Shown piece after piece: positions 19,165-47,412 of a DNA stretch of 64,000 nucleotides (position 1 is its first letter; the number at the start of each line of letters is the position of its first letter). Source of the stretch: Minisyncoccota bacterium (GTDB lineage Bacteria; Patescibacteriota; Minisyncoccia; Phycocordibacterales; CAJQIN01). The stretch is taken from the NCBI GenBank assembly GCA_905478465.1, contig CAJQIN010000012.1, forward strand, positions 32,890 through 96,889, written 5' to 3'. The notes under the pieces are model-generated. The model ran no database searches. It saw nothing but the letters and a program-made list of their open reading frames with translations, and was not told where the DNA came from. The translations under genes were made by a program, and so were the position numbers.

Positions 19165-22107
19165 CAATCCCAATTATTGTTCTTGGAATTCAGGATTCAC
19201 AGTAATCTCAAAGGGTTCAGTCTCACAGGAGTCTGTAAGTCCTTCAGTATTAGTCACAGTTACCTTTGCATTCTTGGTTCCGGTGGTTAGGAACTTCAAG
19301 GTTTGTGTTTGGTCACTGAGGTTCTGTGGTGTATATAGATTTTCATCTATTATCTCCCATTCATATGATAATCCAGTGGTTTCTCCGGTGACTACAACAG
19401 TGAGATCCATATCTTGATTCACGTAGTGAGGAGATGTGGGTTCTGCGGGTCCACAAGATCCAATATCGAAGTTACCTGTCTCTGGTGGATCTGTGGGATC
19501 AGGGTCGGTGTCAGTATCAGTATCTGATGGATCAAGATTTGAAACGGTAATGGTTTCAGAATCCATGATCTTTTGTCCATCAGGTCCGAAACAGAGATAA
19601 TAGAAAGTGGTGTTTTCTGTGATTGGACTTGAGGTTTGTGAACCAGCTACGTTTGGTGTTATTTCTTTGTAGAAAAGCTGTAATGGTGTGTAATCTGAGG
19701 TACTCCAGTTATTGTTTGCAGGATCTGAGACAGCTCCACAACTACTTGCACCTGATGAATTCCAATCAAGATCTACGGTCTCTCCTGAAGAGACAAGGTT
19801 TCGATCAACAGATAGATCAATGATGGGTAATGGTTGGAGGACGGTGACGGTTTTTTCATCAGTTACAGTGGTTCCGTCTAATCCATCACATGTAATGGTG
19901 TATGTGGTGGTACGTGTTGGTGATACTACTTTATTTCCACTTTTGATGTTGTCGGTCCAACCGTATGTGGGGGTGATTGGTATGAGTGTTAGGTCACCGA
20001 TAATAGGCATTCCTATTATCGATGGATATACCCCTGTTGTCATTACGGGTCCAACGAAATTATTATCTACCGGTACTGATACGGTTGGTATATCTGCTAA
20101 TGTTGTACTCTTTAGAGTACCGGTACAACTTGAAACATTCTCTGATGACCACTCAAGGGTTGATGAGTTTCCTCGGTCTATGGTTTCGGGTGTGATGGTG
20201 AGAGAGACGGTGGGTGCGGCGGGTTTGGTGACGGTGTATGAGTTGGAGAGGGTGCCGTAAAACAAATAAGGATCGTCTCTATAAAAAGCAATGCTTCCAT
20301 CTCGATATTTAACATATCCTAAAAATGACCAGTCTGTCGCATCTGACAAGACATACCGACTTGTTTCTTCAAAAAAATTTGCTTGCATTTCATCAAAGTC
20401 AGGTACAATAATAGTCTTAATATTAGCTACAGCAGTTCCACCTCTTCCAACAGTAGCGTCATAATCTTCTGTAGTCACGATAGCGTCTTTACTGTATCTA
20501 GAATAAGACCATTCACTAGGTTTAGATTTCATAAGCCTTAGAAGATCAGGAACATAAGCATAAATCCAACCCGAAGGATCAATAATATATACAGAAGAAT
20601 TAGAGGAACTTCTTATCATGCTATCTATTTGTTCTTCTCTGCGCTCTTCAGTAAACAAAGTAGCGTAAGCAAATCCCTGATTTCCACAAGTGTGTAACCA
20701 AATACTAATAGTTTCGATAAGCTCCTCCCCAACCTCAAAACTATCCTTATTTAAAGAGGTTGTAATGTGCACATGATGTGACACACTCAAATACGTCGCC
20801 GCCTCCACCTCCTGCCCAAACATCCCACCAACCACAATAAGTCCCACAAAAAGCATCATCATCGGAGTTGTACTTGATCGCTTCTTCAAAAGATAACCAA
20901 GACCCAACAGAATAACAATCAAAGCGATAATTGACAGAAGAATGGTTGTAATATTCCCTCCTGTATCTGTTTTTGGTGTCTGGACTTCTCGGGTTGCAAG
21001 AATACCTGAGTCATCAGCTACGGTAGTCATGATAGTTGGAGCAGTACAGTTTCGAGTGACCTCGAAAGTATACGTTCCGGTAACATCAACTTCTGGATCA
21101 ACTGATACTGTCTGGGTATCAGCACAAGAGTTGTTGTTGGCATCAACTAGAGCAATGGTCAGGGTTGGATTTGAAAGAGGGGTTGAGGTAGCTAATGATC
21201 CTGGATATGAATCAGCAGATCCTGACCAGAAGACTTCCACAGTAGCGGTGTCCCCCTTCTGGTATGAGGTTTGATCTGGGGTGACGTTTTGAATGGTGGC
21301 CGAGTTTCCTCTGATGACATAGTGAGGAGTAATTTCATTTGAGACAGTATTGTCATTTTGGAGGGTAATGATGGTGTCATATGCCTGTGGAGCCTGTGGC
21401 AGATGCATAGTGATGTCTAGGGTTTTGGTTTGATTTGACTCCAGAGTGTATGTGTCTGTACTAGTGTATGTCTCAATCACTGGACCTGAGATAGTACGTT
21501 CGTGTGTAATGAAATGTGGTGAGAGTGTTTGTGGGTCTTTTGTACTGTTTGTGACCTCACATGAGAGGATTAGGGTGTCAGTGGCTTCAAGGTCGATACC
21601 TTGGAAGATAGTATATGTCTCATTGTTGTATGTGAACAAACAAGAAGCGGTATCAATAGCAACATACTCTCCTGTTCCTTGGAGAGTGATTGTCTGTACT
21701 GGTACTTGAGAGAAACGAAGACCTGAACTGTTTTCAGATATCATCCAGATTTCGTGTTCTCCTTGGAGGTATGTGGGTGGTGTGTATGTAACTGTTTTGG
21801 TGACACGATCTCCTTCATTGAGAGCTACGATATCATCGAATACTTTGATGTCTGCTGTTTCTCCTGTTTCTGAGTTAATGAGAACAATACTGTAACGGAT
21901 ATCTGATTGATAGTTGAACTTGTTGACGATGTCGAAGTCTAGAGTATATGTATTCTCAGTTCCATTGAAATATGTTATTTCTGCATTATATATACTGACA
22001 TCTGCTACCAAGGTGAGGTCTGATGTATCAACGGGTATTTCTTCTTGCGCGAAGAGTGGGGTGATGATGAGGAGTGAAAGAAGAGAGAGAAAGGTGAGTT
22101 TTTTCAT
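19165..22107. repeat. Direct repeat copy 1, 2,943 bp, 100% identical to 44470..47412
   Basis: All ORF-track ORFs on both strands are identical at a constant offset of 25,305 bp. Read directly, identity starts at CAATCCCAATTATTG, just 3' of the stop, and ends exactly at the ATG. Confidence 0.9.
19174..22107 (-). CDS. Large secreted two-ectodomain surface protein, copy A. Order of parts: signal peptide, ectodomain 1, transmembrane hairpin, ectodomain 2 with Ig/PKD-like repeats.
   Basis: 977 aa. Signal peptide MKKLTFLSLLSLLIITPLFAQ. Transmembrane helix ITTILLSIIALIVILLGLGYLL, then a short loop KKRSSTTP, then a second hydrophobic segment MMMLFVGLIVVGGMF. C-terminal repeats of the form ...TL(E/D)W(S/N)S...SSC(T/G). 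D/T/P-rich linker DPSDTDTDTDPDPTDPPETG. Confidence 0.7.
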   Translation of the reverse strand: MKKLTFLSLLSLLIITPLFAQEEIPVDTSDLTLVADVSIYNAEITYFNGTENTYTLDFDIVNKFNYQSDIRYSIVLINSETGETADIKVFDDIVALNEGDRVTKTVTYTPPTYLQGEHEIWMISENSSGLRFSQVPVQTITLQGTGEYVAIDTASCLFTYNNETYTIFQGIDLEATDTLILSCEVTNSTKDPQTLSPHFITHERTISGPVIETYTSTDTYTLESNQTKTLDITMHLPQAPQAYDTIITLQNDNTVSNEITPHYVIRGNSATIQNVTPDQTSYQKGDTATVEVFWSGSADSYPGSLATSTPLSNPTLTIALVDANNNSCADTQTVSVDPEVDVTGTYTFEVTRNCTAPTIMTTVADDSGILATREVQTPKTDTGGNITTILLSIIALIVILLGLGYLLKKRSSTTPMMMLFVGLIVVGGMFGQEVEAATYLSVSHHVHITTSLNKDSFEVGEELIETISIWLHTCGNQGFAYATLFTEERREEQIDSMIRSSSNSSVYIIDPSGWIYAYVPDLLRLMKSKPSEWSYSRYSKDAIVTTEDYDATVGRGGTAVANIKTIIVPDFDEMQANFFEETSRYVLSDATDWSFLGYVKYRDGSIAFYRDDPYLFYGTLSNSYTVTKPAAPTVSLTITPETIDRGNSSTLEWSSENVSSCTGTLKSTTLADIPTVSVPVDNNFVGPVMTTGVYPSIIGMPIIGDLTLIPITPTYGWTDNIKSGNKVVSPTRTTTYTITCDGLDGTTVTDEKTVTVLQPLPIIDLSVDRNLVSSGETVDLDWNSSGASSCGAVSDPANNNWSTSDYTPLQLFYKEITPNVAGSQTSSPITENTTFYYLCFGPDGQKIMDSETITVSNLDPSDTDTDTDPDPTDPPETGNFDIGSCGPAEPTSPHYVNQDMDLTVVVTGETTGLSYEWEIIDENLYTPQNLSDQTQTLKFLTTGTKNAKVTVTNTEGLTDSCETEPFEITVNPEFQEQ

Positions 22108-22141
22108 ATGTAGTGGTGAATAAATTATTTAATATGATTAA

Positions 22142-22169
22142 ATTATAACACTCACCAAAAACCAAGCAA
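22142..22169 (-). promoter_or_regulatory. Sigma-70-like promoter upstream of surface gene copy A (TTGCTT-N16-TATAAT on the minus strand)
   Basis: Read directly from the sequence. On the plus strand it appears as AAGCAA ... ATTATA. Confidence 0.45.
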
Positions 22170-22178
22170 TTACAATTT

Positions 22179-23279
22179 TTATATCTTAAACTCAATCACA
22201 TCTCCATCTTTTACTACATACTGCTTACCCTCTGTACGAACGAGTCCTTTTTCTCTAGCAATACCAAAAGAACCAGCATTTAATAATTCTTCCCAAAATA
22301 TTATTTCTGCTTTAATAAACTTATCCTCAAAATCTCCATGAATAGCAGCTCCAGCTTGTGGAGCTGTTGAACCTTCTTTTATAGTCCACGCACGAGTTTC
22401 TTTTTCTCCTGTTGTGAAATATGTAATGAGATGTAAAAGTTCGTACCCCTTACGAATAAGCTCATCGATACCATCATCAGGTGCTCCTCCAAGCTCCTTT
22501 CGAAACTCATTTCGCTCTTCCTTATCAAAATCTTTTAAATCTAATTCAATACCAGCATCAATAAAAACATATACAGCATTGTTATCATCTAAATATTTCT
22601 GTAACTCTTGAAACTTATCATCATTTAATTCATCAAGATTTCTTGAATTTTGTTTTTTATTAAGAGCATATAAAACTTGTTTTGCCGTAATAAGATGCAA
22701 ACCTTTCAAAATTACAACTTCATCCTTTTCCATCCCCAGAGTCAAAGCTAGATTATCCCCAAGCAAGTGCTCTTTGAGACGCACAAGTAAATCTCTTTCC
22801 ATAATAATTTTAGCGTCTCCTTTCTTTGCTTCACGTTCTACGGTCTGTAATCTTTTTTCTACAGTCTGTAGATCAGCAAGAATAAGTTCAGTATTAATAG
22901 TACGAATATCAGAAAGAGGATCTATTTCACCGTGCACATGATGCACATCCTCATCCTCAAAAATACGTACTACATGACAAATAGCATCTGTTTCTCGAAT
23001 ATTAGTAAGGAATTGATTTCCAAGCCCTTCTCCTTCAGAGGCACCCTTCACGAGTCCAGCAATATCAACGAACTCTACTGCAGCAGGAATCGTTTTCTGT
23101 GTCTTACTAAACTCAGCTAATTTATGCAGACGAGTGTCAGGCACAGCAACAACCCCTACAGATGGATCAATAGTGGCAAAAGGATAGTTTGCAACAAGAA
23201 CACTCTTTTTTGTAAGTGCATTAAATAAAGTCGATTTTCCGACATTTGGTAATCCAACAATTCCGATTGATAGTGACAT
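22179..23279 (-). CDS. ychF: Ribosome-binding ATPase YchF (Obg-like GTPase family with a TGS domain)
   Basis: [23 protein letters not shown] ... [19 protein letters not shown]. Confidence 0.9.
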
Positions 23280-23407
23280 AGTCTAGATACGTTATCACAA
23301 AGAAGACAAAATAAAAATACCAACACATCTGCTACAAGCTGACGTATTGGTATTATGTGCGTAGATTATTTGAACTGAAAACTATTTGTCTGTCCATGAC
23401 AACCCCT

Positions 23408-23674
23408 TTACTTTACACTTGAAAACTGTCTGAGATATTCAGCTGAATATTCAATACCCGTATCGATAACTTCTTCAACTTCCTGATCACTTAAGCCAAG
23501 TTCTTTTCCTTGAATACGAAGATTGTCAACCTGATCCTTTTTCCACGATTGATACTCCTTAGATGCGCCGGCACGTTCTCCCTTTTTCGCACTTCCTATA
23601 TCTAAAAAATATTTTTCCACAAAGTCCTCAAAACATTGCTTAACTTCTGACAAAAAAATTTCTGTATTATCCAT
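23408..23674 (-). CDS. Hypothetical small acidic protein (88 aa)
   Basis: ATG at 23672-23674 preceded by GAGGAG. The ORF track starts it at an upstream TTG. Confidence 0.4.
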   Translation of the reverse strand: MDNTEIFLSEVKQCFEDFVEKYFLDIGSAKKGERAGASKEYQSWKKDQVDNLRIQGKELGLSDQEVEEVIDTGIEYSAEYLRQFSSVK

Positions 23675-23786
23675 AATAATACTCCTCAAAGTTACGAAGT
23701 AATCTACGCAAATTCCATATTAAGTAAATATAAAAAACCAGCGTTTGTCAAACACTGGTTTTATATAGGTTAGAGAAAAAAATGTA

Positions 23787-24215
23787 TTATTTTTTCTTAA
23801 ACTTATCTCTAGCACGTCTATGAGCCGCCTGAAACTTCTTAGAAGGCTTAGAAACCCTTCTTGATGATAGAAAGAAGAAAGAAACTTTTTGAAGACTTGT
23901 CCACCGCCCTTCAAACCATCTCAGATATTTACTCTTCTCCTCACTGATAGTTTTTTTGATTCTTTCTGTTTCCTCGCGAGCATCAGCAAGACTTCTTTTT
24001 TCCCTACTCTTTACATCTTCAAGCTCTTTCCGATATCTGTTTCTAATATCCCTTCGATTTCTTTCAGACCTATCCTTGATTTTTTGAGCTATATTTCCTC
24101 TCAGAGAAAGTTGCTTCATAAGATCAAGAATACGATTTAACATGTTTCTACGTTCCTCCTCAAACAATTCAAATTTTTTTACAAGTGGCGTAAAAAGGTC
24201 TTTAAAGCGTCCCAT
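23787..24215 (-). CDS. Hypothetical basic coiled-coil protein (about 142 aa)
   Basis: Start MGRFKDLF, with a GGAGGG RBS upstream. The C-terminus is rich in K and R. Confidence 0.4.
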   Translation of the reverse strand: MGRFKDLFTPLVKKFELFEEERRNMLNRILDLMKQLSLRGNIAQKIKDRSERNRRDIRNRYRKELEDVKSREKRSLADAREETERIKKTISEEKSKYLRWFEGRWTSLQKVSFFFLSSRRVSKPSKKFQAAHRRARDKFKKK

Positions 24216-24321
24216 GCTAGCACCCTCCTCTCTTTTGTAATAAGGGATAACTGTTTCTATATACACGATACATCCAAACTCCCCAAAAAACAAATACCAG
24301 CTAAAGCTGGTATTTTAATTT

Positions 24322-24543
24322 TTACATTAATCCTTTAAGTTCATTTTGATACTTTTGCATCACAGACATCGTTGCGCTCATCTGATCTTTTCCCGCTTTT
24401 ACCTCTACCTGCACTTCCTCTGCAATTTTTTTAAAAAAATCAGGATTTTTCTCAATCATACCTAAAATCTGATCTTGTTGATCTTGAGGAACATCTTTCA
24501 TCTGAGACTTCAACATTTTTTTCATTAAAAAGTTTTTAAACAT
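24322..24543 (-). CDS. Hypothetical small protein (73 aa)
   Basis: ORF only. Confidence 0.3.
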   Translation of the reverse strand: MFKNFLMKKMLKSQMKDVPQDQQDQILGMIEKNPDFFKKIAEEVQVEVKAGKDQMSATMSVMQKYQNELKGLM

Positions 24544-24580
24544 ATATACAAAAAATTATTTACAGAAATTATATTTTACC

Positions 24581-25393
24581 CTACCCAAGACGACTATTCA
24601 AATACGCTAAAGCTCCATACAAACCTCCAACAGCTCCAAGCTGGGCTTTCTTTATTATTGGCTGTATGGGATATACTTTTGATATCTCTTTAAGATACAT
24701 TTCTACCCTTGAAACTTGAATAGCAGGACTTCCTGTAATCATGGAACCACCAAGCACAATCACATCTGGCGACCAGTGTACTCTTGAATTATGAAGTCCA
24801 TAAGCAAGTTTCTCTGCTAACTCTTCCCAGATAAAATTATCCTGGGATATCTCATATGCTTTCTTTCCAAAACGTTCTTCAACTGCCCTACCAGAAACAA
24901 GTTCTTCAAGAGTATGTTGCATATCAATAATTTCTGTTCCGGGTTCAAAACCAAGAGCATGTTCATCTATCTCCCCGTTTACAATTCGAGCTCCGCCAAC
25001 ACCAGTACTTACCGTCATGTACATCACAATACTCTTCCCCATGCCAGCACCAGAAACAGCTTCACCCAAACCAACAACTGCGGCATCATTTTCGATAAAC
25101 ACAGGACATTTAAAATCTGTTTCAAGTCGTTCATCAATAGGCTTATTCACCCACCCAGACAAGTTAGGAGAACGAGTAAGTTTTGAGCGCGTCGCATCAA
25201 GAGTTCCACTAATTCCTCCAGCAATACCTTTTATTTCCTCACGAGTCATTCTTTCTACATGATTACAAATACCTGCAATACCCTTCTCATAATCTTGTTC
25301 TGTATCAAAAATAACAGGATCTGCAAAACTTTTTAGATCTTTTGAAAGAGCTAATCGTGTCTTTGTGGCACCTATATCAAAAAGAAGATACAT
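24581..25393 (-). CDS. ROK-family sugar kinase (glucokinase-like)
   Basis: N-terminus MYLLFDIGATKTRLAL and ROK motif ENDAAVVGLGEA. Confidence 0.7.
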   Translation of the reverse strand: MYLLFDIGATKTRLALSKDLKSFADPVIFDTEQDYEKGIAGICNHVERMTREEIKGIAGGISGTLDATRSKLTRSPNLSGWVNKPIDERLETDFKCPVFIENDAAVVGLGEAVSGAGMGKSIVMYMTVSTGVGGARIVNGEIDEHALGFEPGTEIIDMQHTLEELVSGRAVEERFGKKAYEISQDNFIWEELAEKLAYGLHNSRVHWSPDVIVLGGSMITGSPAIQVSRVEMYLKEISKVYPIQPIIKKAQLGAVGGLYGALAYLNSRLG

Positions 25394-25394
25394 A

Positions 25395-26387
25395 TTATTT
25401 AATAATTAATTTTTTAAACTCTTCTACCATCGGTACTTGTTCAGCTTCTGTTCCGTATAAACGTGAAATACTTAGCGCTGTCCAATCTGCAACAAGAAGT
25501 GTCGAGAAAATCTTTTCAAAAAGAGATGCTCCATTTATTTCACGTACAATTACCTCAAATCCTTTTTCCTCAAAAATCTTTTCGGTAACATCCATTCTTT
25601 TTTGAATATGTTCATTATCATCCCTGTCTTTAAGGAAAATAAAAGTAAATTTTTCTGACAATTCTTTTGTACTATCAATAAAGTCAAAGCCCGTCATTTC
25701 ATTATGATTTAACTCTGGGAAAACATTATAAAATGCAGGAATCTTCCCTGTTTCATTAAATTTAATCTTCCAGTTATACACAAGAGGCAGATTACGAAGT
25801 GAGCTATATATAACAGGTACTTTGCCTTTTAAATTTTCTGCCAACTCCTTACCTGCACTTTCATACTCTTCAGGCTTCAAAACATTTGCCACCTGAGCAA
25901 GATCAAATGCCAATTGCCCATTTCCAATAAGCGCCGCTAAAGCAACGAGAGAATATCCAAGCGCACTTCGTGGTTGAATACCCGTAGATGGAATTTCTAT
26001 ATACGGAATATTATATTCTTTAGCTTTTTCGATCAGCTTTCCTCCTGTCGCCATAACCGCCATGGAATATCCGTGTGCAATACCGTCATCAAGAAAACTC
26101 AAAACTTCTTCAGTATTACCAGAATAAGAACTAGCAATAAGAAGACTGTCCTTCAGAAAAGACTCGTCGTAAGGAGGCATATCATAATCACGATGTACGT
26201 ATAAATCAATTCCAGGTTGCCACATTTTAATAAGTCCTGTTGAAAGATGAGATCCACCCATACCAGCTACAACAATTTGTTTATGTGCCACTTTTAAATT
26301 ATCCATATTTTCGATAATAGGTTTCCAAGAAAATTGTGTCGCAAATTTTTTTATAGCTTCTTCCATATATTTTATATTATTACACAT
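25395..26387 (-). CDS. Bifunctional phosphoglucose/phosphomannose isomerase (SIS domain, archaeal-type PGI)
   Basis: VVAGMGGSHLS motif, and it sits in the pentose-phosphate cluster. Confidence 0.7.
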   Translation of the reverse strand: MCNNIKYMEEAIKKFATQFSWKPIIENMDNLKVAHKQIVVAGMGGSHLSTGLIKMWQPGIDLYVHRDYDMPPYDESFLKDSLLIASSYSGNTEEVLSFLDDGIAHGYSMAVMATGGKLIEKAKEYNIPYIEIPSTGIQPRSALGYSLVALAALIGNGQLAFDLAQVANVLKPEEYESAGKELAENLKGKVPVIYSSLRNLPLVYNWKIKFNETGKIPAFYNVFPELNHNEMTGFDFIDSTKELSEKFTFIFLKDRDDNEHIQKRMDVTEKIFEEKGFEVIVREINGASLFEKIFSTLLVADWTALSISRLYGTEAEQVPMVEEFKKLIIK

Positions 26388-27092
26388 TTATAATTCTAAA
26401 TCAGTACAGAGAGTCACTTTTTTCATATCTTTCCATACCTGCGCTGGCATAACATGATACGGTAATTTCTCACCTTTAATCTTCTTTAACATTAAGTGTT
26501 TTTGTTCACCACATGCAAATGCTATAGCATATTCAACTTCCTGCAGAAGAAAACTAAGTGTCACAGTAAAACGTATAGAATGTTGATTCTTACCCTTCGC
26601 ATCATATCCTACTACCCACTCATCATCTAGAAACAAATCATTAAAACATTTTTCACTCTCTGGAAAAGGGAAAATACCAGCAGTATGCCCATCGTCTCCC
26701 ATACCCAATATCGCACACACAATACCCTCAGGATTTCTTTTTCTCCACATTCGCAACTGCATTTCATAATGTTGCACGGCCCTCGGCAAAGATTCCCCTT
26801 TATATATTTTAGTACCTATAATAGACACTTGTTTTTCTAATAATTTATCAAAAAAATCTGTCTGCTCAAATTGAGTGAAATTATTCACAAGCGGGTCCAT
26901 ACTAAACCTGTCATCGATAACAGACATTGTAATTCTCTCATCGACGTACTCAGCATCAACGTGTTCAAACACAGAGAAAGCAGATCCTCCAGAAAACATC
27001 AGTAATACAGGAACATCCTTATGCTCCTTCAAAAAATTATTTATTTGTTTGCCTGCCTGAACTTCAGGATGAGTATCAATACAGTATTCCAT
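26388..27092 (-). CDS. pgl: 6-phosphogluconolactonase (NagB/RpiA/DevB family)
   Basis: LLMFSGGSAFSVF motif, plus its position between pgi and gnd. Confidence 0.7.
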   Translation of the reverse strand: MEYCIDTHPEVQAGKQINNFLKEHKDVPVLLMFSGGSAFSVFEHVDAEYVDERITMSVIDDRFSMDPLVNNFTQFEQTDFFDKLLEKQVSIIGTKIYKGESLPRAVQHYEMQLRMWRKRNPEGIVCAILGMGDDGHTAGIFPFPESEKCFNDLFLDDEWVVGYDAKGKNQHSIRFTVTLSFLLQEVEYAIAFACGEQKHLMLKKIKGEKLPYHVMPAQVWKDMKKVTLCTDLEL

Positions 27093-27991: not shown

Positions 27992-27997
27992 ACAATG

Positions 27998-29452: not shown

Positions 29453-29554
29453 AGAAGATTATTATAACAAAAAAGCACGAGGCGGTTATACAAACCGCAC
29501 TCGTACTTATTGAATTCTATTTGAAACCTCAACTATTTTTTTGTTTTTTGTGGA

Positions 29555-30393: not shown

Positions 30394-30399
30394 AATTTG

Positions 30400-37369: not shown

Positions 37370-37402
37370 AACAAAATAATATTAATATACAAATACAGTA
37401 TA

Positions 37403-39430: not shown

Positions 39431-40649
39431 TTTTTCTGTAATATTTTTTTAAGAATGATTCTTTAAAAATTGCAAAATTTCCATCTTGAATTGATTTCCT
39501 AATATCACTCATGAGCTTCGTAATAAAAGCAATATTATTAATACTTGCAAGTGTTCCGGCAACCATTTCATCTGCCCTAAAAAGATGTGCAACATATGCT
39601 TTTGTATATTTTTGTTCAAAATCCCACAAACCATTCTCATCTAACAAAGTAAAATCTGTTGTATATTTCTTATTAGAAATCCTTATAGGTCCATATTCTG
39701 TATAAACAACACCATGTCGTCCAACACGTGTTGGAGCAACACAGTCAAACAAATCACATCCATTCTCTACTCCCATTAAAATATCTACCGGCTCACCTAT
39801 GCCCAATAAATGTCTGGGTTTTTCCTCAGGAAGAATGTCATTAACCCAGGCTACAGCAGTAGACATATCCTCTTTTTCAAAAGAACCTCCAATACCAAAA
39901 CCATCAAACGACATCTCAGAAATAGTTTTAGCACTTTCTTTTCTTAATTCTTCATATCTCCCACCTTGTACAACACCAAACAAAGCCTGCTTCTCTGAAG
40001 CTAAGGTATTTTGCATATGAGATTGCAATGAACGTTTTGCCCACCGATGAGTACGATCAAGCGCTTCCTTTTGATACTCGTATTCAGCCAAAGGCGATGT
40101 GCACTCATCAAAAGCAAACATAATATCAGCTCCAATATTATGCTGAATTTCAATAGAACGTTCTGGGGTAAATCTATGTAAACTGCCATCTAGGTGCGAA
40201 GTGAAGGTCACTCCGTCCTCATCTATATGTGCCAACTTTGCATGCTCAGTCAAGGTTTCCTCTCGAAAAACATCTAGCCCGTCTGCATCAACTACATCTG
40301 TAGATATTTTACTGATATTTTTTCCAAAAGCTGTTCCTAGAGAGAATACCTGAAATCCTCCAGAATCGGTAATTGTTGGACCATCCCAACCCATAAAAGA
40401 ACCTAGCCCTCCAGCACCTTTTACTATTTCTTCACCAGGTTGTAGGAATAGATGATAAGTATTAGCAAGTACTGCTTGCACACCAACATCTTGTACATCT
40501 TTAGGGAGTACTGACTTTATCGTAGCTTTCGTACCGACGGGTGTGAAGTTAGGTGTATCAATATGACCGTGCGGTGTCTCGATACGCCCTACACGTGCGC
40601 TACTCTTGGTATCCTTAGCAACTATTTCAAACTGTAATGGTTTCTTCAT
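39423..40649 (-). CDS. tgt: Queuine tRNA-ribosyltransferase
   Basis: FEIVAKDTKSSARVGRIETPHGHIDTPNFTPVGT ... LANTYHL. The C-terminal region is where the Zn-binding Cys/His cluster of Tgt is expected. Confidence 0.88.
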   Translation of the reverse strand: MKKPLQFEIVAKDTKSSARVGRIETPHGHIDTPNFTPVGTKATIKSVLPKDVQDVGVQAVLANTYHLFLQPGEEIVKGAGGLGSFMGWDGPTITDSGGFQVFSLGTAFGKNISKISTDVVDADGLDVFREETLTEHAKLAHIDEDGVTFTSHLDGSLHRFTPERSIEIQHNIGADIMFAFDECTSPLAEYEYQKEALDRTHRWAKRSLQSHMQNTLASEKQALFGVVQGGRYEELRKESAKTISEMSFDGFGIGGSFEKEDMSTAVAWVNDILPEEKPRHLLGIGEPVDILMGVENGCDLFDCVAPTRVGRHGVVYTEYGPIRISNKKYTTDFTLLDENGLWDFEQKYTKAYVAHLFRADEMVAGTLASINNIAFITKLMSDIRKSIQDGNFAIFKESFLKKYYRKNV

Positions 40650-40688
40650 ATAACCAGACTAGTTGCGAATATACTTTTCGTCAATGTC

Positions 40689-41216
40689 TTACTGTTGCGT
40701 AGACTGTACACCCAAAAGTTCTACATCAAAAATTAATGTAGCATTCGCAGGGATAAGATATTCTCCAGTCTGAGGATTTTTAATTCCAGCTGAACCGTAG
40801 GCATATTCAGACTTAATAGTTAGTTGTCTTTTTCCTCCAATCTTCATACCAGCAACTCCAAGATCCCAACCTTTAATTACAGAACCATACCCAAGAGGAA
40901 ACTGAAAAGGTTCCCCCCGAGAAACTGAACTATCAAAAACAGTCCCGTCTTCAAGACGCCCAGTGTAATGCACAGTAACTAATGATCCATTAGTAGCAAC
41001 TTCCCCTGTTCCAATAACTTCATCTTTCATGATAAGTGCGTCTGATTCTGATACCGGTTGTTTTTGTTCATCTGTCATATTTAAAGTTTGATTTAATGTG
41101 TAATTACTAGAAGAGTCTGAAAAAAAAATTTTATTAATAAAAGGAAAGAAAAGAATAAGTATAACAATCACTCCTGCTGCTACAGCTATCCATTCCCTAG
41201 ATGTGTATTTTTTCAT
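40689..41216 (-). CDS. FKBP-type peptidyl-prolyl cis-trans isomerase, membrane-anchored
   Basis: TVHYTGRLEDGTVFDSSVSRGEPFQFPLGYGSVIKGWDLGVAGMKIGGKRQLTI. I placed the start at MKKYTSREW. The ORF track extends it to 41336. Confidence 0.82.
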   Translation of the reverse strand: MKKYTSREWIAVAAGVIVILILFFPFINKIFFSDSSSNYTLNQTLNMTDEQKQPVSESDALIMKDEVIGTGEVATNGSLVTVHYTGRLEDGTVFDSSVSRGEPFQFPLGYGSVIKGWDLGVAGMKIGGKRQLTIKSEYAYGSAGIKNPQTGEYLIPANATLIFDVELLGVQSTQQ

Positions 41217-41294
41217 ATGTATATTACAAAACAAATAATATCTAAAGTATAATACGAGCTCCCAAATAAGTACAATTTTGGTATACTGTAGAAC

Positions 41295-42017
41295 ATGATA
41301 AAAAAAGCAGACAACCCAAAAGCAGGTAAAACACACTCATTTACCCCATTAACCCTCAATGAAATACGTCAAGCAACAGAAAAACGTATTGAAAAGATAC
41401 AAAAAGAATTCTCAGAGGGATTCAATCTAATAGAAAATCATCCACGCTCTGTTACTTTTTTTGGTTCAGCTCGCCTGTCTGAAAAACATCCTTGGTATAT
41501 AAAAGCGCAAGAATTGGCTCGACGCATATCATCTGAATTACAATACTCAGTTTTAACAGGAGGTGGTCCTGGAATTATGGAAGCAGGAAATCGTGGAGCA
41601 CATGAAGCCGGAGGTAAATCTCTTGGACTTGATATTGAACTTCCACATGAACAAAATAAAAATCCATACACAACAGAATCTGCTAGTTTTTATTATTTTT
41701 TCAGTCGTAAGGTTTGCCTCTCATTCTCTGCTGAAACATATGTATTTTTCCCCGGTGGCTTTGGTACTATGGACGAAATATTTGAAATACTAACACTAAT
41801 ACAAACTGGAAAAATAGATCCTGTACCAGTAGTCCTAGTCGGAAAAAGCTACTGGAAACATCTGGATAAATTTATACAAAAGATACTGGTAAAAAATAAA
41901 TTTATAGACCCTGATGACACAAAACTTTACACAATTACTGACAACCTAGATGAAGTACTTGAAATTATAAAAAATGCACCCGTACGAAACGGTATTCGTT
42001 TTGAGGAAGAAAAATAA
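41295..42017 (+). CDS. LOG family protein (TIGR00730, cytokinin riboside 5'-monophosphate phosphoribohydrolase-like)
   Basis: VTFFGSARL ... LTGGGPGIMEAGNRGA ... FPGGFGTMDEIFE. Confidence 0.8.
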   Translation: MIKKADNPKAGKTHSFTPLTLNEIRQATEKRIEKIQKEFSEGFNLIENHPRSVTFFGSARLSEKHPWYIKAQELARRISSELQYSVLTGGGPGIMEAGNRGAHEAGGKSLGLDIELPHEQNKNPYTTESASFYYFFSRKVCLSFSAETYVFFPGGFGTMDEIFEILTLIQTGKIDPVPVVLVGKSYWKHLDKFIQKILVKNKFIDPDDTKLYTITDNLDEVLEIIKNAPVRNGIRFEEEK

Positions 42018-42022
42018 AAAAT

Positions 42023-42053
42023 AAGTGCGTTCTTTGTTTAAAAGAACGCACTT
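42023..42053. terminator. Bidirectional hairpin terminator AAGTGCGTTCTTT-N5-AAAGAACGCACTT flanked by A and T runs
   Basis: Read directly from the sequence. It sits between the convergent LOG gene and the 42078 ORF. Confidence 0.6.
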
Positions 42054-42077
42054 TTTTATTTTCTGTTTAAAAAAATA

Positions 42078-42356
42078 CTAGCTGATTTCAGCCACGTGCA
42101 CCGTAGGAATAGAAAGTCCACGCTGCACAGGAATAGCCACAACCACTACAGAACACATAGCCTGTTCTTTGTTAGCCGGCCAGTTGCCCTTCTTAGGAAG
42201 AACAAGTTGAGTTCCCTCATACATACCAAGTACATTTCTTGAGGAGGGATCAGGATTATAAAACATAACACCCCCAATCATAGTATCTACAGGAAGTGTA
42301 CCGTTTTTCACAGATGAATTAATCGCCGTCATACAAGGCCCCTTAATATAGAACAT
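42078..42356 (-). CDS. Hypothetical small protein (92 aa)
   Basis: ORF only. Confidence 0.3.
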   Translation of the reverse strand: MFYIKGPCMTAINSSVKNGTLPVDTMIGGVMFYNPDPSSRNVLGMYEGTQLVLPKKGNWPANKEQAMCSVVVVAIPVQRGLSIPTVHVAEIS

Positions 42357-42447
42357 GCCTGAATCCGTCAGGCGCGGTTGTTGCTCTACTCCTTTGTAAG
42401 CAACTGTCCAAGAATACTATACCAAAGATAAACCAATCTGTGAAGAA

Positions 42448-42720
42448 CTACCACTCACAAGTATAGGCACAGACACTCGTACACAATTCCTCCTCTGTTG
42501 CACATGCTGTACCACAAGTATTAAAATTTCCTTTTTTTTCTTTACAATCTTTTATAAGAGGAGATTTATTTTCAGATAAATTAACAGTATAGACTATTTT
42601 ATTTTCATACACAGCTTGAGTAGATACCAAACGTCCAGGCTTTACACCATAAGAAATAAAAAAATACCAAATAATGATATTTACCACGACCAACAATGCA
42701 ACCTTACTTCGATATCCCAT
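42448..42720 (-). CDS. Hypothetical small membrane-anchored protein (90 aa) with a Cys-rich C-terminus
   Basis: N-terminal transmembrane helix. C-terminus CGTACATEEELCTSVCAYTCEW. Confidence 0.35.
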   Translation of the reverse strand: MGYRSKVALLVVVNIIIWYFFISYGVKPGRLVSTQAVYENKIVYTVNLSENKSPLIKDCKEKKGNFNTCGTACATEEELCTSVCAYTCEW

Positions 42721-42728
42721 AAGAATAA

Positions 42729-43472
42729 TTATTTAGAATCAGTAATAATAGATATAGTAACACGATATTCATCCATAGATATTTCTTCAATTGTTTTCTC
42801 TGGCATTACCGAAAGTATTTTTATCAAATAATCCCCTGCCAAAAATTCATCATCATTTGTCGTAATAGTGTAATTACCTTTCTCGCCAGAAAAAACATCT
42901 TCAACAGAAATATCCACAGCAATACGTCCAGTCTGCACACACACAACTCCAGTAACACACCGACTATCTTCAAGAATTTTATTAAGAACTATTTTTAAAC
43001 CATCATACTCAACCTTTTGCCCTACCGAAAATGTAGTTATTTTTTGAGGGATATCCGTCCACAAAACTTTATATATCTCAGAAATACCCTTAACCGGAAA
43101 ATCAAACCTATCCATAGTATTTCCTTCAGAATCTAATCCTGTCACATATATCTCCCTTGCCATAACTGGATCAGGCAATGACATAATCCATGTCTGTTTA
43201 TCACCATACGACTCAACTAGATGACCCTGCCCAATTGACACAACTTCTTTTTCAGCACTATACACAAAAACTTCAACCGACGCCGCGTCAACAGTTTCAA
43301 TAACAAAATTACTATCAGTGGCTGAGAACCCATAGATCAAACCTGTTTCGAGTGAAGTTTTGCTAATATTTTCTGTCTCAATAGAACTTGTACTATTAGT
43401 AGCAGACATGTACACCAAAAAACCTCCAAGCAACACAACACTTATTCCTACAGCAATCCAATCTTTTTTCAT
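42729..43472 (-). CDS. Hypothetical membrane-anchored protein (247 aa)
   Basis: N-terminal transmembrane helix (IAVGISVVLLGGFLVYM). Confidence 0.4.
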   Translation of the reverse strand: MKKDWIAVGISVVLLGGFLVYMSATNSTSSIETENISKTSLETGLIYGFSATDSNFVIETVDAASVEVFVYSAEKEVVSIGQGHLVESYGDKQTWIMSLPDPVMAREIYVTGLDSEGNTMDRFDFPVKGISEIYKVLWTDIPQKITTFSVGQKVEYDGLKIVLNKILEDSRCVTGVVCVQTGRIAVDISVEDVFSGEKGNYTITTNDDEFLAGDYLIKILSVMPEKTIEEISMDEYRVTISIITDSK

Positions 43473-43486
43473 TTAATAAAAGTTGA

Positions 43487-43990
43487 TTACTCTACTGTTT
43501 TAAATAGACTTGAAACAGGATCATTACCGTCAATAACAAGAGAGTCAAAATTTTGATCAAATTCTTTATCACCATTATCACGATATATAACTACACTATA
43601 TTCGTTTTCAGATATAGTTGGACGTAATAGGTCAACGGTAACATCCTGATATGAGCCAGTAGAAAGACGCACAGCACCAAGAATATTACCCATCTGTCCA
43701 CCTACTACTTCTCGTACTGCCAACCAACCATCTAAAGAAACTTTCACTGAAGCAATATCTACCGTTTCGCCAGCAACCTGATCTTGTACTGAAATATATT
43801 CTCCTTCCTGTTTTTGTACGTCTTTTGTTACTACATCTTTTGTATGATCAAAAACAATACTTTCTTTTTGCTGCTCTGTATTAGATTCAATACTATTACT
43901 CTCTCCTGAAGACCTTCCAGCCACAAAACCAATGATAAGACCTGCTACCAAGGCAATTACTACGGGTGTGTATATTTTTGATGTATCCAT
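43487..43990 (-). CDS. Hypothetical membrane-anchored protein (about 167 aa)
   Basis: I placed the start at MDTSKIYTPVVIALVAGLIIGFVAG, which begins with a transmembrane helix. The ORF track extends it to 44038. Confidence 0.4.
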   Translation of the reverse strand: MDTSKIYTPVVIALVAGLIIGFVAGRSSGESNSIESNTEQQKESIVFDHTKDVVTKDVQKQEGEYISVQDQVAGETVDIASVKVSLDGWLAVREVVGGQMGNILGAVRLSTGSYQDVTVDLLRPTISENEYSVVIYRDNGDKEFDQNFDSLVIDGNDPVSSLFKTVE

Positions 43991-44051
43991 ATATCTATAA
44001 TTAACGTACTTAATATTCACAGAATAGCACGAATACACAACGATTCAAGAA

Positions 44052-44090
44052 CAAAAAACCGGCGCGCTTGAATAAGCAACGCCGGCCGGG
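44052..44090 (-). terminator. GC-rich rho-independent terminator (CCGGCG-loop-CGCCGG followed by UUUUUUG on the minus strand)
   Basis: Read directly from the sequence. It is the only strongly GC-rich hairpin in this neighbourhood. Confidence 0.6.
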
Positions 44091-44469
44091 ACCCACCCTC
44101 TGAACTAATCCAAAGGTACTGATGGAATATTATCTGGAAGAAACACACTTGCGGTTAAGCTACTCGGCTCCTCCAAAACACTTTGTGTAACTTCAAAGAA
44201 CGCTACGAGGGTATTCTCAAGACCAGAAAAAACTGCTGGCATTAAGAACTTGATAGTAATTAGTATCATGATCAGACACAATGCGCTGAATAATTTCATA
44301 TATTCATGTGCCTGAGAAAGATGTTACTGTATTCGGACAAGAATACAGCGTGAACTAATTGTTCACTACCCCTCTCTTCTCTTTAATCAATAGAATTTAA
44401 TTAATGAAAGAAAAGAGAGGATTAGCTTCTCTATTCTAATTTAAATTATAATCTATTTTACTAATATGT

Positions 44470-47412
44470 CAATCCCAATTATTGTTCTTGGAATTCAGGA
44501 TTCACAGTAATCTCAAAGGGTTCAGTCTCACAGGAGTCTGTAAGTCCTTCAGTATTAGTCACAGTTACCTTTGCATTCTTGGTTCCGGTGGTTAGGAACT
44601 TCAAGGTTTGTGTTTGGTCACTGAGGTTCTGTGGTGTATATAGATTTTCATCTATTATCTCCCATTCATATGATAATCCAGTGGTTTCTCCGGTGACTAC
44701 AACAGTGAGATCCATATCTTGATTCACGTAGTGAGGAGATGTGGGTTCTGCGGGTCCACAAGATCCAATATCGAAGTTACCTGTCTCTGGTGGATCTGTG
44801 GGATCAGGGTCGGTGTCAGTATCAGTATCTGATGGATCAAGATTTGAAACGGTAATGGTTTCAGAATCCATGATCTTTTGTCCATCAGGTCCGAAACAGA
44901 GATAATAGAAAGTGGTGTTTTCTGTGATTGGACTTGAGGTTTGTGAACCAGCTACGTTTGGTGTTATTTCTTTGTAGAAAAGCTGTAATGGTGTGTAATC
45001 TGAGGTACTCCAGTTATTGTTTGCAGGATCTGAGACAGCTCCACAACTACTTGCACCTGATGAATTCCAATCAAGATCTACGGTCTCTCCTGAAGAGACA
45101 AGGTTTCGATCAACAGATAGATCAATGATGGGTAATGGTTGGAGGACGGTGACGGTTTTTTCATCAGTTACAGTGGTTCCGTCTAATCCATCACATGTAA
45201 TGGTGTATGTGGTGGTACGTGTTGGTGATACTACTTTATTTCCACTTTTGATGTTGTCGGTCCAACCGTATGTGGGGGTGATTGGTATGAGTGTTAGGTC
45301 ACCGATAATAGGCATTCCTATTATCGATGGATATACCCCTGTTGTCATTACGGGTCCAACGAAATTATTATCTACCGGTACTGATACGGTTGGTATATCT
45401 GCTAATGTTGTACTCTTTAGAGTACCGGTACAACTTGAAACATTCTCTGATGACCACTCAAGGGTTGATGAGTTTCCTCGGTCTATGGTTTCGGGTGTGA
45501 TGGTGAGAGAGACGGTGGGTGCGGCGGGTTTGGTGACGGTGTATGAGTTGGAGAGGGTGCCGTAAAACAAATAAGGATCGTCTCTATAAAAAGCAATGCT
45601 TCCATCTCGATATTTAACATATCCTAAAAATGACCAGTCTGTCGCATCTGACAAGACATACCGACTTGTTTCTTCAAAAAAATTTGCTTGCATTTCATCA
45701 AAGTCAGGTACAATAATAGTCTTAATATTAGCTACAGCAGTTCCACCTCTTCCAACAGTAGCGTCATAATCTTCTGTAGTCACGATAGCGTCTTTACTGT
45801 ATCTAGAATAAGACCATTCACTAGGTTTAGATTTCATAAGCCTTAGAAGATCAGGAACATAAGCATAAATCCAACCCGAAGGATCAATAATATATACAGA
45901 AGAATTAGAGGAACTTCTTATCATGCTATCTATTTGTTCTTCTCTGCGCTCTTCAGTAAACAAAGTAGCGTAAGCAAATCCCTGATTTCCACAAGTGTGT
46001 AACCAAATACTAATAGTTTCGATAAGCTCCTCCCCAACCTCAAAACTATCCTTATTTAAAGAGGTTGTAATGTGCACATGATGTGACACACTCAAATACG
46101 TCGCCGCCTCCACCTCCTGCCCAAACATCCCACCAACCACAATAAGTCCCACAAAAAGCATCATCATCGGAGTTGTACTTGATCGCTTCTTCAAAAGATA
46201 ACCAAGACCCAACAGAATAACAATCAAAGCGATAATTGACAGAAGAATGGTTGTAATATTCCCTCCTGTATCTGTTTTTGGTGTCTGGACTTCTCGGGTT
46301 GCAAGAATACCTGAGTCATCAGCTACGGTAGTCATGATAGTTGGAGCAGTACAGTTTCGAGTGACCTCGAAAGTATACGTTCCGGTAACATCAACTTCTG
46401 GATCAACTGATACTGTCTGGGTATCAGCACAAGAGTTGTTGTTGGCATCAACTAGAGCAATGGTCAGGGTTGGATTTGAAAGAGGGGTTGAGGTAGCTAA
46501 TGATCCTGGATATGAATCAGCAGATCCTGACCAGAAGACTTCCACAGTAGCGGTGTCCCCCTTCTGGTATGAGGTTTGATCTGGGGTGACGTTTTGAATG
46601 GTGGCCGAGTTTCCTCTGATGACATAGTGAGGAGTAATTTCATTTGAGACAGTATTGTCATTTTGGAGGGTAATGATGGTGTCATATGCCTGTGGAGCCT
46701 GTGGCAGATGCATAGTGATGTCTAGGGTTTTGGTTTGATTTGACTCCAGAGTGTATGTGTCTGTACTAGTGTATGTCTCAATCACTGGACCTGAGATAGT
46801 ACGTTCGTGTGTAATGAAATGTGGTGAGAGTGTTTGTGGGTCTTTTGTACTGTTTGTGACCTCACATGAGAGGATTAGGGTGTCAGTGGCTTCAAGGTCG
46901 ATACCTTGGAAGATAGTATATGTCTCATTGTTGTATGTGAACAAACAAGAAGCGGTATCAATAGCAACATACTCTCCTGTTCCTTGGAGAGTGATTGTCT
47001 GTACTGGTACTTGAGAGAAACGAAGACCTGAACTGTTTTCAGATATCATCCAGATTTCGTGTTCTCCTTGGAGGTATGTGGGTGGTGTGTATGTAACTGT
47101 TTTGGTGACACGATCTCCTTCATTGAGAGCTACGATATCATCGAATACTTTGATGTCTGCTGTTTCTCCTGTTTCTGAGTTAATGAGAACAATACTGTAA
47201 CGGATATCTGATTGATAGTTGAACTTGTTGACGATGTCGAAGTCTAGAGTATATGTATTCTCAGTTCCATTGAAATATGTTATTTCTGCATTATATATAC
47301 TGACATCTGCTACCAAGGTGAGGTCTGATGTATCAACGGGTATTTCTTCTTGCGCGAAGAGTGGGGTGATGATGAGGAGTGAAAGAAGAGAGAGAAAGGT
47401 GAGTTTTTTCAT
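44470..47412. repeat. Direct repeat copy 2, 2,943 bp, identical to 19165..22107
   Basis: See copy 1. Confidence 0.9.
44479..47412 (-). CDS. Large secreted two-ectodomain surface protein, copy B. It is 100% identical to copy A.
   Basis: Identical 977-aa translation. It is divergent from the plus-strand exonuclease gene and lacks the copy-A promoter sequence. Confidence 0.7.
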   Translation of the reverse strand: MKKLTFLSLLSLLIITPLFAQEEIPVDTSDLTLVADVSIYNAEITYFNGTENTYTLDFDIVNKFNYQSDIRYSIVLINSETGETADIKVFDDIVALNEGDRVTKTVTYTPPTYLQGEHEIWMISENSSGLRFSQVPVQTITLQGTGEYVAIDTASCLFTYNNETYTIFQGIDLEATDTLILSCEVTNSTKDPQTLSPHFITHERTISGPVIETYTSTDTYTLESNQTKTLDITMHLPQAPQAYDTIITLQNDNTVSNEITPHYVIRGNSATIQNVTPDQTSYQKGDTATVEVFWSGSADSYPGSLATSTPLSNPTLTIALVDANNNSCADTQTVSVDPEVDVTGTYTFEVTRNCTAPTIMTTVADDSGILATREVQTPKTDTGGNITTILLSIIALIVILLGLGYLLKKRSSTTPMMMLFVGLIVVGGMFGQEVEAATYLSVSHHVHITTSLNKDSFEVGEELIETISIWLHTCGNQGFAYATLFTEERREEQIDSMIRSSSNSSVYIIDPSGWIYAYVPDLLRLMKSKPSEWSYSRYSKDAIVTTEDYDATVGRGGTAVANIKTIIVPDFDEMQANFFEETSRYVLSDATDWSFLGYVKYRDGSIAFYRDDPYLFYGTLSNSYTVTKPAAPTVSLTITPETIDRGNSSTLEWSSENVSSCTGTLKSTTLADIPTVSVPVDNNFVGPVMTTGVYPSIIGMPIIGDLTLIPITPTYGWTDNIKSGNKVVSPTRTTTYTITCDGLDGTTVTDEKTVTVLQPLPIIDLSVDRNLVSSGETVDLDWNSSGASSCGAVSDPANNNWSTSDYTPLQLFYKEITPNVAGSQTSSPITENTTFYYLCFGPDGQKIMDSETITVSNLDPSDTDTDTDPDPTDPPETGNFDIGSCGPAEPTSPHYVNQDMDLTVVVTGETTGLSYEWEIIDENLYTPQNLSDQTQTLKFLTTGTKNAKVTVTNTEGLTDSCETEPFEITVNPEFQEQ

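Follow-up and report, generated by a model that had tools for sequence, protein, structure and literature searches.

How two loci of one small genome came to share exactly one coding sequence, identical to the last base and set in different surroundings, is the question raised by the stretch of DNA analysed here, which comes from a tiny marine member of the Patescibacteria. These bacteria, whose genomes are very small, rely on contact between their cell surface and their hosts, and the gene in question encodes a surface protein. On present evidence the two genes are a recent paralog pair; the following sections consider whether both copies are real, what their relatives look like and which event could have made them identical.

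The repeat and its two settings

Self-comparison of the window (the whole stretch of DNA that was analysed, 64,000 nucleotides) revealed two copies of a 2943-bp repeat (R) in direct orientation, 25.3 kb apart at an offset of 25,305 (Table 1), which are 100 % identical with 0 mismatches, with the reservation that short-read contigs pool reads from both copies and a few mid-gene SNPs between the copies are possible. The base-for-base identity described in the first-pass annotation is therefore confirmed, as is the recurrence of open reading frames, since the 977-aa ORF and a number of spurious plus-strand ORFs reappear at +25,305. The limits given there also hold, the repeat being bounded by the coding sequence: its 5' edge is the A of the ATG and its 3' edge lies 9 nt past the TAA. 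Not one further base matches on either side, and the 7-9 nt outside each edge agree at chance level only. Searches of R for paralog fragments, inverted repeats and internal repeats gave none.

Table 1. Coordinates of the features of the repeat locus within the window
Feature	Position	Strand	Remarks
leuS, flank of copy A	16221..19091	-	
Intrinsic terminator of copy A, GGAAACCACCC-TGGA-GGGGTGGTTTTTT	19126..19153	-	outside the repeat, then leuS promoter
Repeat copy A (R-A)	19165..22107	-	977-aa CDS 19174-22107 and 9 nt beyond its stop codon
Unique inter-copy segment, 22,362 bp	22108..44469	.	collinear with relatives
Promoter-like site of copy A, TTGCTT-16-TATAAT, TGn extended -10	22142..22169	-	outside the repeat
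Perfect consensus promoter TTGACA-16-TATAAT	44445..44472	-	across the 3' boundary of copy B
Repeat copy B (R-B)	44470..47412	-	identical 977-aa CDS 44479-47412 plus the same 9 nt
Extended -10 box of copy B, TGGTATAAT	47443..47451	-	ends 30 nt before the ATG, in a 114-bp divergent region
RNase_T/ExoX-like 3'-5' exonuclease gene (exo)	47527..48255	+	divergent flank of copy B

Each copy has an upstream region of its own, as had been stated earlier. The promoter proposed for copy A is present, its -10 box ending 34 nt before the ATG, and the divergent region that copy B was said to share with an exonuclease gene was likewise found. At the other end of copy B, the consensus promoter (12/12 positions) takes its TTG from the last 3 nt of the repeat and reads into a unit made up of a structured RNA and a 45-aa ORF. 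The downstream flanks of the two copies are unrelated. The absence of a Shine-Dalgarno sequence, to which attention had been drawn, is true for both copies, but it is uninformative because it is general in the window: a clear Shine-Dalgarno was seen in 0 of the 44 genes checked, and a weak AAGG or AGGA match in only two.

The 22.4-kb segment between the copies harbours ychF, G6PD, 6PGD, pgl, pgi, ROK, ddl, uvrC, uvrA, uvrB, tgt, DUF7282 and other genes, which bears out its earlier description as housekeeping DNA without transposase or integrase.

Copy number and arrangement

Independent support comes from other metagenome assemblies of this organism, which are ~99.97-100 % identical: in more than 20 independent short-read assemblies the contigs break off at each of the four junctions, with overlaps of k size. 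Judged from contig coordinates, from which the overlap counts were derived, the contigs reach into the repeat by exactly k or k-1 bases (127, 55 or 30) at every junction. One such node, NODE_1834_length_22616, consists of the 22,362-bp inter-repeat segment with 127 bp of repeat at each end. For copy A, contigs L001 and L002 span R from the ychF flank, L002 joining ychF, R and leuS, and for copy B, contigs L004-L007, L009 and L012 enter R from the exonuclease flank. The exonuclease-anchored contigs stop 1.7-2.0 kb into the gene, at a C-rich patch, and a coverage dip there is the likely cause; internal repeats were rejected as a cause, since none is present in R.

An assembly artefact, which the first-pass annotation had listed among its explanations, would mean that one copy per genome was duplicated in the record or that two near-identical copies were collapsed. 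A 2.9-kb repeat is indeed beyond phasing by short-read assemblers, no more than 3 collection blocks contain the full-length protein, and the SPAdes contig coverages in ERZ1764476 fit about 1.2x; those in ERZ1764466, however, fit 2x, and at 3-4x depth these contradictory values are too low to count copies. Recovery of four distinct junctions in many independent assemblies, each with k-sized overlaps, essentially refutes this option, and the 22,616-bp node, with repeat at both ends, and the backbone order in relatives, which requires both junction pairs on one chromosome, also speak against it. An artefact is thus very unlikely, and we regard the two identical copies as confirmed.

Extremely unlikely, in our opinion, is a different topology, in which the chromosome reads leuS-R-exo and recombination between the repeats has generated a 25.3-kb unit of R and the segment, either circular or tandemly amplified. 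Both topologies give one and the same assembly graph, in which R has two ins and two outs, and perfect direct repeats of 2.9 kb are efficient RecA substrates. The segment, however, carries ddl, uvrA, uvrB, uvrC, tgt, ychF and the pentose-phosphate genes without replication functions, in relatives that lack the repeat altogether it likewise lies between leuS and exo, with order and orientation unchanged, and contig L002 connects ychF, R and leuS directly. The earlier claim that the copies form a recombination substrate stands as a potential one, the perfect repeats lying around 22 kb of unique DNA, and the pair could drive amplification of the 25-kb housekeeping segment. The locus is, in addition, a well-documented natural example of a perfect 2.9-kb repeat that breaks short-read MAG assemblies.

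The surface protein, its relatives and the two slots

The encoded protein, for which the term giant is generous at 977 residues, has a signal peptide and three beta-sandwich domains as well as a transmembrane hairpin, and its C-terminal half is modular and Ig-like. In the AF2 model the beta-sandwich domains occupy aa 35-375, and helices cover 385-408 and 414-428; its Foldseek matches are arrays of FN3/Ig/MG type, and the C-terminal repeat modules are also found in giant repeat proteins. Searches with the protein gave sub-threshold PKD matches only in Pfam, none in NCBIfam and nothing specific on function in a sequence search of the PDB. Relatives are limited to the N-terminal domain and to Patescibacteria, at identities of 37 % or less, and no homolog above 37 % identity was found in a set of 5.8 billion proteins, in GTDB genomes or in JGI metagenomes. 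The family, which has no formal name, was taken as P0001-P0005 together with 51 loci from a genome scan, nearly all of which are labelled as Patescibacteria-type lineages. In the alignment, the protein shows the features of this family, namely a signal peptide, the N-terminal domain, a central pair of transmembrane helices and a variable C-terminal ectodomain; the conserved N-terminal domain spans ~350 aa and carries the motifs PQAYD, SATIQNV and WSGSA. Family members often occur as two paralogs per genome, and in another MAG the paralogs share a 555-bp tract of 97 % identity within proteins that are 55 % identical, which indicates that gene conversion occurs in the family.

The GC content of R is 41.8 % versus 35.9 % in the rest of the window, and its GC3 (0.349) is the highest of the 52 genes in the window, the 51 others ranging from 0.17 to 0.31. 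In 25 other genomes the homolog was never more than 2 sd above its neighbours in composition. The gene looks like a fairly recent horizontal acquisition; a phage origin was rejected, with no relative in IMG/VR and no blastn match in phage records.

In the nearest relatives the flanking proteins are 76-80 % identical (ychF 78-80 %, exo 76 %), and the nearest lineage shows a collinear backbone, leuS-[X]-ychF...uvrCAB...tgt...DUF7282-exo. The slot between ychF and leuS (slot A) is occupied by a NUDIX gene in the nearest lineage and by a DUF5671 gene in the second, and the 71-bp spacer between copy A and ychF is absent there, the slot gene starting 4-9 nt after ychF. At slot B, DUF7282 and exo directly adjoin. 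Comparison with relatives had been proposed as a way to tell whether one or two copies are usual; in the nearest lineages both slots are without the gene. At 80 further exo loci no family member lies within 10 kb, and a search for closer relatives returned none at more than 90 % identity that could show an intermediate state. The synteny of distant homologs, a few of which lie near DHO_dh, exo, CAP or FKBP and one near sigma/DUF8128, is ambiguous as a guide to the ancestral copy and was set aside.

Origin of the identity and comparison with known systems

A very recent duplication or gene conversion, as suggested in the first-pass annotation, is the right class of explanation. Our preferred reading, to which we give roughly even confidence, is that the identity was made by one very recent, non-reciprocal copying of the coding sequence, from the ATG to 9 nt past the stop codon, into a second slot. 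Only this stretch would have passed between the loci, and the receiving slot would already have had its own promoter, 5' UTR and downstream elements. Locus A, being a complete promoter-gene-terminator unit between ychF and leuS, is probably the likelier donor and locus B the target, where the copy probably replaced a former gene that started at the same ATG. The junctions may lie in tiny shared sequences, the ATG on the 5' side and the TTG of a pre-existing TTGACA promoter on the 3' side. What we infer is that the event was recent, that it ran from A to B, that it displaced a former gene and that microhomology was used; the surface protein would as a result be present in two doses, each with an independent promoter. 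The perfect identity with abrupt boundaries, the lack of the gene at either slot in relatives, its outlying GC and GC3, and the position of the promoter and terminator of copy A just outside the repeat all count for such an event. On the other hand, we know of no mechanism that copies exactly one ORF, and by our estimate random breakpoints would have a chance below about 1 % of falling 0 nt and 9 nt from the ends of the coding sequence, which also counts against it, as does the gene conversion seen in another MAG. Well-placed dedicated promoters with similar UTRs (34 and 30 nt) are more natural for two long-established loci.

This last point leads to the main rival, possible though doubtful, in which two old paralogous loci are kept identical by RecA-dependent gene conversion and the identity is limited to the coding sequence because the flanks are non-homologous. 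The tufA/tufB genes show just such ORF-limited identity with unrelated flanks (PMC5485169), and the dedicated promoters at similar spacing, the frequent occurrence of two paralogs per genome and the mosaic high-identity tracts between paralogs elsewhere are in keeping with it; the raised GC3 might reflect GC-biased conversion. The upstream regions of the copies also align better than 99.3 % of the gene pairs in the window. This similarity, however, vanishes once the shared extended -10 box is removed; flank homology as a mark of an old duplication was therefore rejected, and the lack of it counts for a copy event. In the tuf model conversion stops at the end of homology and is much rarer near gene ends (PMC5485169), so that an old pair should have eroded edges, whereas this pair has none, without a single difference up to both ends, including the 9 non-coding nt. 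The lack of a family member at either slot in the nearest relatives and the foreign-like composition likewise speak against long residence.

Movement of R as a discrete unit, either as a promoterless ORF cassette shifted by a recombinase or as a reverse-transcribed mRNA with ends set by start and stop, is very unlikely. It would explain why R has exactly the same ends at two sites, both of them empty in relatives, and it fits the foreign-like composition and the outward-facing TTG that completes a perfect -35 box, as at some IS ends; leaderless mRNAs are apparently widespread in the genome. With just two copies known, however, one event accounts for the shared ends, and the 64 kb contain no transposase, integrase or reverse transcriptase, the sole long ORF in R being that of the surface protein; precomputed Pfam lists for the window's neighbouring genes show no transposase or integrase domain either. 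The ends of R, CAATCCCAATTATTG... and ...GAGTTTTTTCAT, do not form inverted repeats, neither a target-site duplication nor a common target sequence is present in the flanks, and no attC-like element, internal hairpin or inverted repeat of at least 14 nt was found in R. A mobile element was rejected on these grounds, and with no viral matches the earlier view that this is no IS or prophage boundary is upheld. A retro-copy of a leaderless mRNA was likewise rejected, since mRNAs with -10 boxes 30-34 nt upstream are not leaderless, and the terminator of locus A is missing from the copy. A bolder but very unlikely reading holds that the start-to-stop precision is not luck, and that a Shine-Dalgarno-free, largely leaderless lineage copies bare ORFs into promoter-equipped slots, for which ychF-leuS and DUF7282-exo would be recurrent landing pads; template switching or mRNA- or recombinase-mediated transfer of an 'ORF cassette' are examples of how this could proceed.

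A fresh duplicate of a surface-protein gene under two different promoters would indicate that genes are still being gained and dosage altered in Patescibacteria, and the ends that coincide with the ORF, the variability of the ychF-leuS slot and the mosaic paralogs of related MAGs hint at turnover of the family by recombination. Current concepts are unchanged unless a dedicated mechanism of ORF copying is found.

The tufA and tufB genes of Salmonella and E. coli derive from an essential housekeeping gene that was duplicated long ago, and have 1185 nt, inverse orientation, a distance of 762 kb and 12 differing sites (PMC5485169). The R pair resembles them in having two dispersed copies that are near-identical within the coding sequence only, with flanks that are unrelated and expression contexts that differ. 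Unlike them, it encodes a lineage-specific surface protein and lies in direct orientation 25 kb apart, with 0 differences over 2943 nt to the last base and abrupt edges, and the nearest lineages hold other genes or nothing at both slots. Composite transposons and amplifiable units, such as IS-flanked segments and the AUDs of Streptomyces, consist of identical direct repeats flanking a cargo. The R-segment-R arrangement is similar, and amplification or deletion by homologous recombination is possible; however, R encodes a surface protein rather than a transposase, has no inverted-repeat ends or target-site duplications, and its 'cargo' is ancestral, collinear housekeeping DNA that was not inserted. 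Integron cassettes are promoterless, ORF-tight units expressed from a promoter at the insertion site, as R could be described, but R has no attC-like imperfect palindrome after the stop codon, where 9 nt only are shared, no integrase gene or attI was found for it in the window, and its two sites do not form an array. In reduced host-associated bacteria, for example Mycoplasma, variable surface protein families use diverged or partial copies for variation, whereas the R copies are identical and no antigenic diversity is gained; what the two have in common is a duplicated surface-protein gene in a tiny genome, mosaic exchange between paralogs, here in related MAGs, and a possible diversification of dosage or regulation.

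The repeat and its junctions

Direct comparison within the window showed that bases 19165-22107 (copy A, or locus A) and 44470-47412 (copy B, or locus B) match at every one of 2943 positions, with an offset of 25,305, and that the identity breaks off at the very next base beyond either end. Read along the coding strand, the repeat opens with the A of the ATG and closes 9 nt past the TAA; the 7-9 nt outside each end match between the copies only at chance level. Base comparison agrees with the identity, offset and boundaries given in the first-pass annotation, and its claim that ORFs of the repeat are reproduced at this offset was seen for the 977-aa gene and the spurious plus-strand ORFs. No further long repeats were found in the window. 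Within a 471-aa ORF (60664-62079, minus strand), a 42-nt unit (GCATCATC-rich on the plus strand) recurs about 12 times as a degenerate array.

Contigs of the same organism were fetched by exact-protein look-up (ENA ERZ17644xx and ERZ234986xx 'SOLA22-1', Logan ERR43525xx) and, across more than 20 independent assemblies, show 99.97-100% identity to the window. Their overlaps with the repeat, derived from contig coordinates, are 127, 55 or 30 nt from the side of the divergent exonuclease gene, exo (L003, L008, L010, L011), and fall in the same set from the leuS side (L167, L168, L165), the ychF side (L020, L021, L024) and the DUF7282 side (L013, L014); these lengths equal k or k-1, the overlap that a repeat should leave in a de Bruijn graph. 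NODE_1834_length_22616 consists of the 22,362-bp segment between the copies with 127 bp of repeat on both sides, L001 runs from ychF across the entire gene and halts exactly at 19165, L002 covers ychF, the repeat and leuS, and six contigs reach into copy B from its exonuclease side. All four repeat junctions therefore occur in nature, each being found in independent assemblies, and the assembly artefact considered initially can largely be dismissed. Contig coverages of 3-4x are too low for copy counting, and the answers were mixed between samples.

The same graph could be resolved into a leuS-repeat-exo chromosome and a circle of repeat plus segment; however, this is implausible, since the segment holds ddl, uvrA, uvrB, uvrC, tgt, ychF and pentose-phosphate genes, and repeat-free relatives keep it between leuS and exo with unchanged gene order and orientation.

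Five of the six contigs entering copy B from the exonuclease flank break off after 1712-1991 nt of the gene. This zone contains a C-rich patch (G-rich on the plus strand) at gene nt ~1860-1975, and no internal repeats were found; a coverage dip is likely to be behind these early stops, and hidden population variation may be.

Features of the two loci and of related contigs (window coordinates unless a contig is named)
Feature	Position	Strand	Description
977-aa ORF	19174-22107; 44479-47412	minus	single real gene within the repeat
Contig stop zone	45422-45701 (= 20117-20396)		inside the repeat; contigs from exonuclease flank
Copy A promoter	22142-22169		TTGCTT-16-TATAAT, inside 71-bp spacer
Copy A terminator	19126-19153		intrinsic; leuS promoter comes next
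Copy B extended -10 box	47443-47451		in divergent region common to copy B and exo
Promoter at copy B 3' end	44445-44472		TTGACA-16-TATAAT, 12/12 sigma-70 consensus
Structured RNA	44330-44440		~100 nt; MFE -36.3 kcal/mol, z = -5.4
45-aa ORF	44105-44242	minus	in unit 44053-44472 (-)
Terminator after 45-aa ORF	44053-44089		intrinsic; unit 44053-44472 (-)
ychF-leuS slot	19128-22178; L077 11102-11624; L080 11102-12078		surface protein / NUDIX / DUF5671
leuS with inserted NUDIX	16221-19091 (-); L077 11625-14444; L080 12079-14907		Pfam PF00293
Paralog tract, MAG CAYPQU01	L065 10777-11331; L075 10813-11367		555 bp at 96.9% DNA identity

Flanks of the two copies

Judged from its sequence, copy A is a complete unit of promoter, gene and terminator, with the promoter predicted in the first-pass annotation duly located in the gap upstream. 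The divergent upstream region said to be shared by copy B and exo was likewise recovered, with its own extended -10 box. Of the gene pairs in the window, 99.3% have upstream regions that align less well than those of the two copies; once the extended -10 box common to both is left out, significance is lost (p = 0.09 and 0.62), so the likeness consists of this box only.

No terminator lies directly 3' of the copy B gene. The -35 TTG of the perfect promoter at this end constitutes the last three bases of repeat copy B, and a strongly structured RNA, a 45-aa ORF and a terminator follow in that order. No Rfam match was obtained, and the unit is missing in its entirety from the DUF7282-exo spacer of the nearest relative. 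A 247-aa gene (42729-43472, minus strand), flanked by DUF7282 and the small ORFs, matched nothing in Pfam or NCBIfam; it is missing from the nearest relative's syntenic region and is another lineage-specific addition beside copy B.

The lack of a Shine-Dalgarno sequence at either copy stands, but is not peculiar to this gene: clear sites were found at 0 of 44 gene starts in the window (weak AAGG or AGGA matches at two), and the absence is therefore a genome-wide trait. At many of these starts a -10 (TATAAT-like) box ends 6-10 nt 5' of the ATG, which suggests that leaderless mRNAs may be the rule in this organism, placed within Patescibacteria by its flanking proteins.

The gene among relatives and its product

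The nearest lineages (YchF 78-80%, exonuclease 76% identical) keep the same backbone, with uvrA-uvrC-ddl-G6PD-6PGD-pgl-pgi-ROK-...-ychF-[X]-leuS-sigma-DUF8128 to one side and uvrA-...-uvrB-tgt-FKBP-LOG-...-DUF7282-exo-...-CAP to the other. Slot X, the ychF-leuS gap, is occupied by a NUDIX gene of 158 aa in one relative lineage and by a DUF5671 gene of 303 aa in another; a lineage-specific terminator comes after either gene, and the slot looks like a small gene-turnover hot spot within an otherwise collinear region. In the one checkable relative lineage DUF7282 and exo are immediate neighbours separated by 131 bp, and at 80 further loci that carry an exo homolog no family member lies within 10 kb. 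By comparison with every available relative, the 977-aa gene is thus an addition at both slots.

The leuS of this organism carries an inserted NUDIX domain (GGVEEGESYEDAVLREVQEETGY), a family listed inside leuS in both relative lineages also; the free-standing NUDIX gene of one relative immediately precedes leuS and occupies the slot of copy A.

With a GC content of 41.8% (35.9% in the rest of the window) and GC3 of 0.349 (0.17-0.31 across all 51 other window genes), the gene is the compositional outlier of the window, which fits a horizontal acquisition not yet ameliorated. Among 25 other genomes, a family homolog never exceeds its neighbours in composition by more than 2 sd. Searches of GTDB genomes, JGI metagenomes and viral contigs gave no closer relative of the gene.

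The label of surface protein is fair. The product has a cleavable-looking signal peptide at its N-terminus, a region of ~350 aa predicted to form three tandem beta-sandwich domains (AlphaFold model, pLDDT 60-90) and two adjoining transmembrane helices (aa 385-408, 414-428), so that both large parts face outward. The 550-aa C-terminal half, modelled with low confidence, has two ~70-aa modules that also recur in giant multi-repeat proteins. Foldseek detected only generic FN3/Ig/macroglobulin-type arrays, Pfam gave PKD matches below threshold, and PDB sequence search and NCBIfam gave no match. Relatives are restricted to the N-terminal domain (five proteins at <=36% identity in 5.8 billion sequences); a genome scan recovered 51 loci with the family, nearly all labelled Patescibacteria-type, including Paceibacteria, Moranbacteria, Nomurabacteria and Kaiserbacteria. 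Two family paralogs in CAYPQU01, another Patescibacteria MAG, encode proteins 55% identical, and their mosaic is typical of either partial gene conversion or MAG chimerism.

Origin of the pair

The duplication is real, probably recent and ORF-precise, and concerns a Patescibacteria surface-protein gene that was apparently acquired horizontally. A mobile element was rejected as no mobility gene, inverted ends, target duplication, attC or common target was found, in line with the earlier view that this is not a simple IS or prophage boundary. The serious options number two: a copy made very recently, or concerted evolution that has acted for a long time on two paralogous loci. The latter would account for identity limited to the ORF, as in tufA/tufB (PMC5485169), and for the dedicated promoter at each copy, and the CAYPQU01 paralogs with their nearly identical tract lend it further support. 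However, tuf conversion halts where homology ends and occurs far less often close to gene ends (PMC5485169), so the edges of old copies should have diverged, whereas here identity is perfect to the final base, with the 9 non-coding nt included, and then gives way to instant randomness. The absence of the gene from both slots in relatives and its foreign-like composition also argue against concerted evolution.

Given these abrupt edges, the absence from relatives' slots and the composition, a single recent non-reciprocal event is favoured, in which the bare coding sequence would have been written into a second slot already equipped with promoter, 5'UTR and start codon; the recent duplication or gene conversion proposed at first is thus the right kind of event. 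Locus A, as a complete promoter-gene-terminator unit, is the likelier donor and locus B would be the recipient, its junctions representing putative 3-nt microhomologies with pre-existing elements, the ATG and the TTG of the perfect promoter. We infer this direction, the use of microhomology and which gene was overwritten; had that gene been a diverged paralog, the event would amount to homeologous conversion over the full length, and the two options would become one. The exact boundaries are the one feature still in need of explanation; by our estimate, random breakpoints would give ORF-tight ends in well under 1% of events.

Two identical genes with different promoters may permit higher or differently timed expression. 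Direct repeats of 2.9 kb are able to recombine; deletion between them would cost essential genes, and amplification of the 25.3-kb unit is possible. Events of this kind are already known, as recent paralogs or gene conversion, and the repeat pair resembles tufA/tufB in that the likeness of the copies is confined to the ORF and their flanks are unrelated (PMC5485169).
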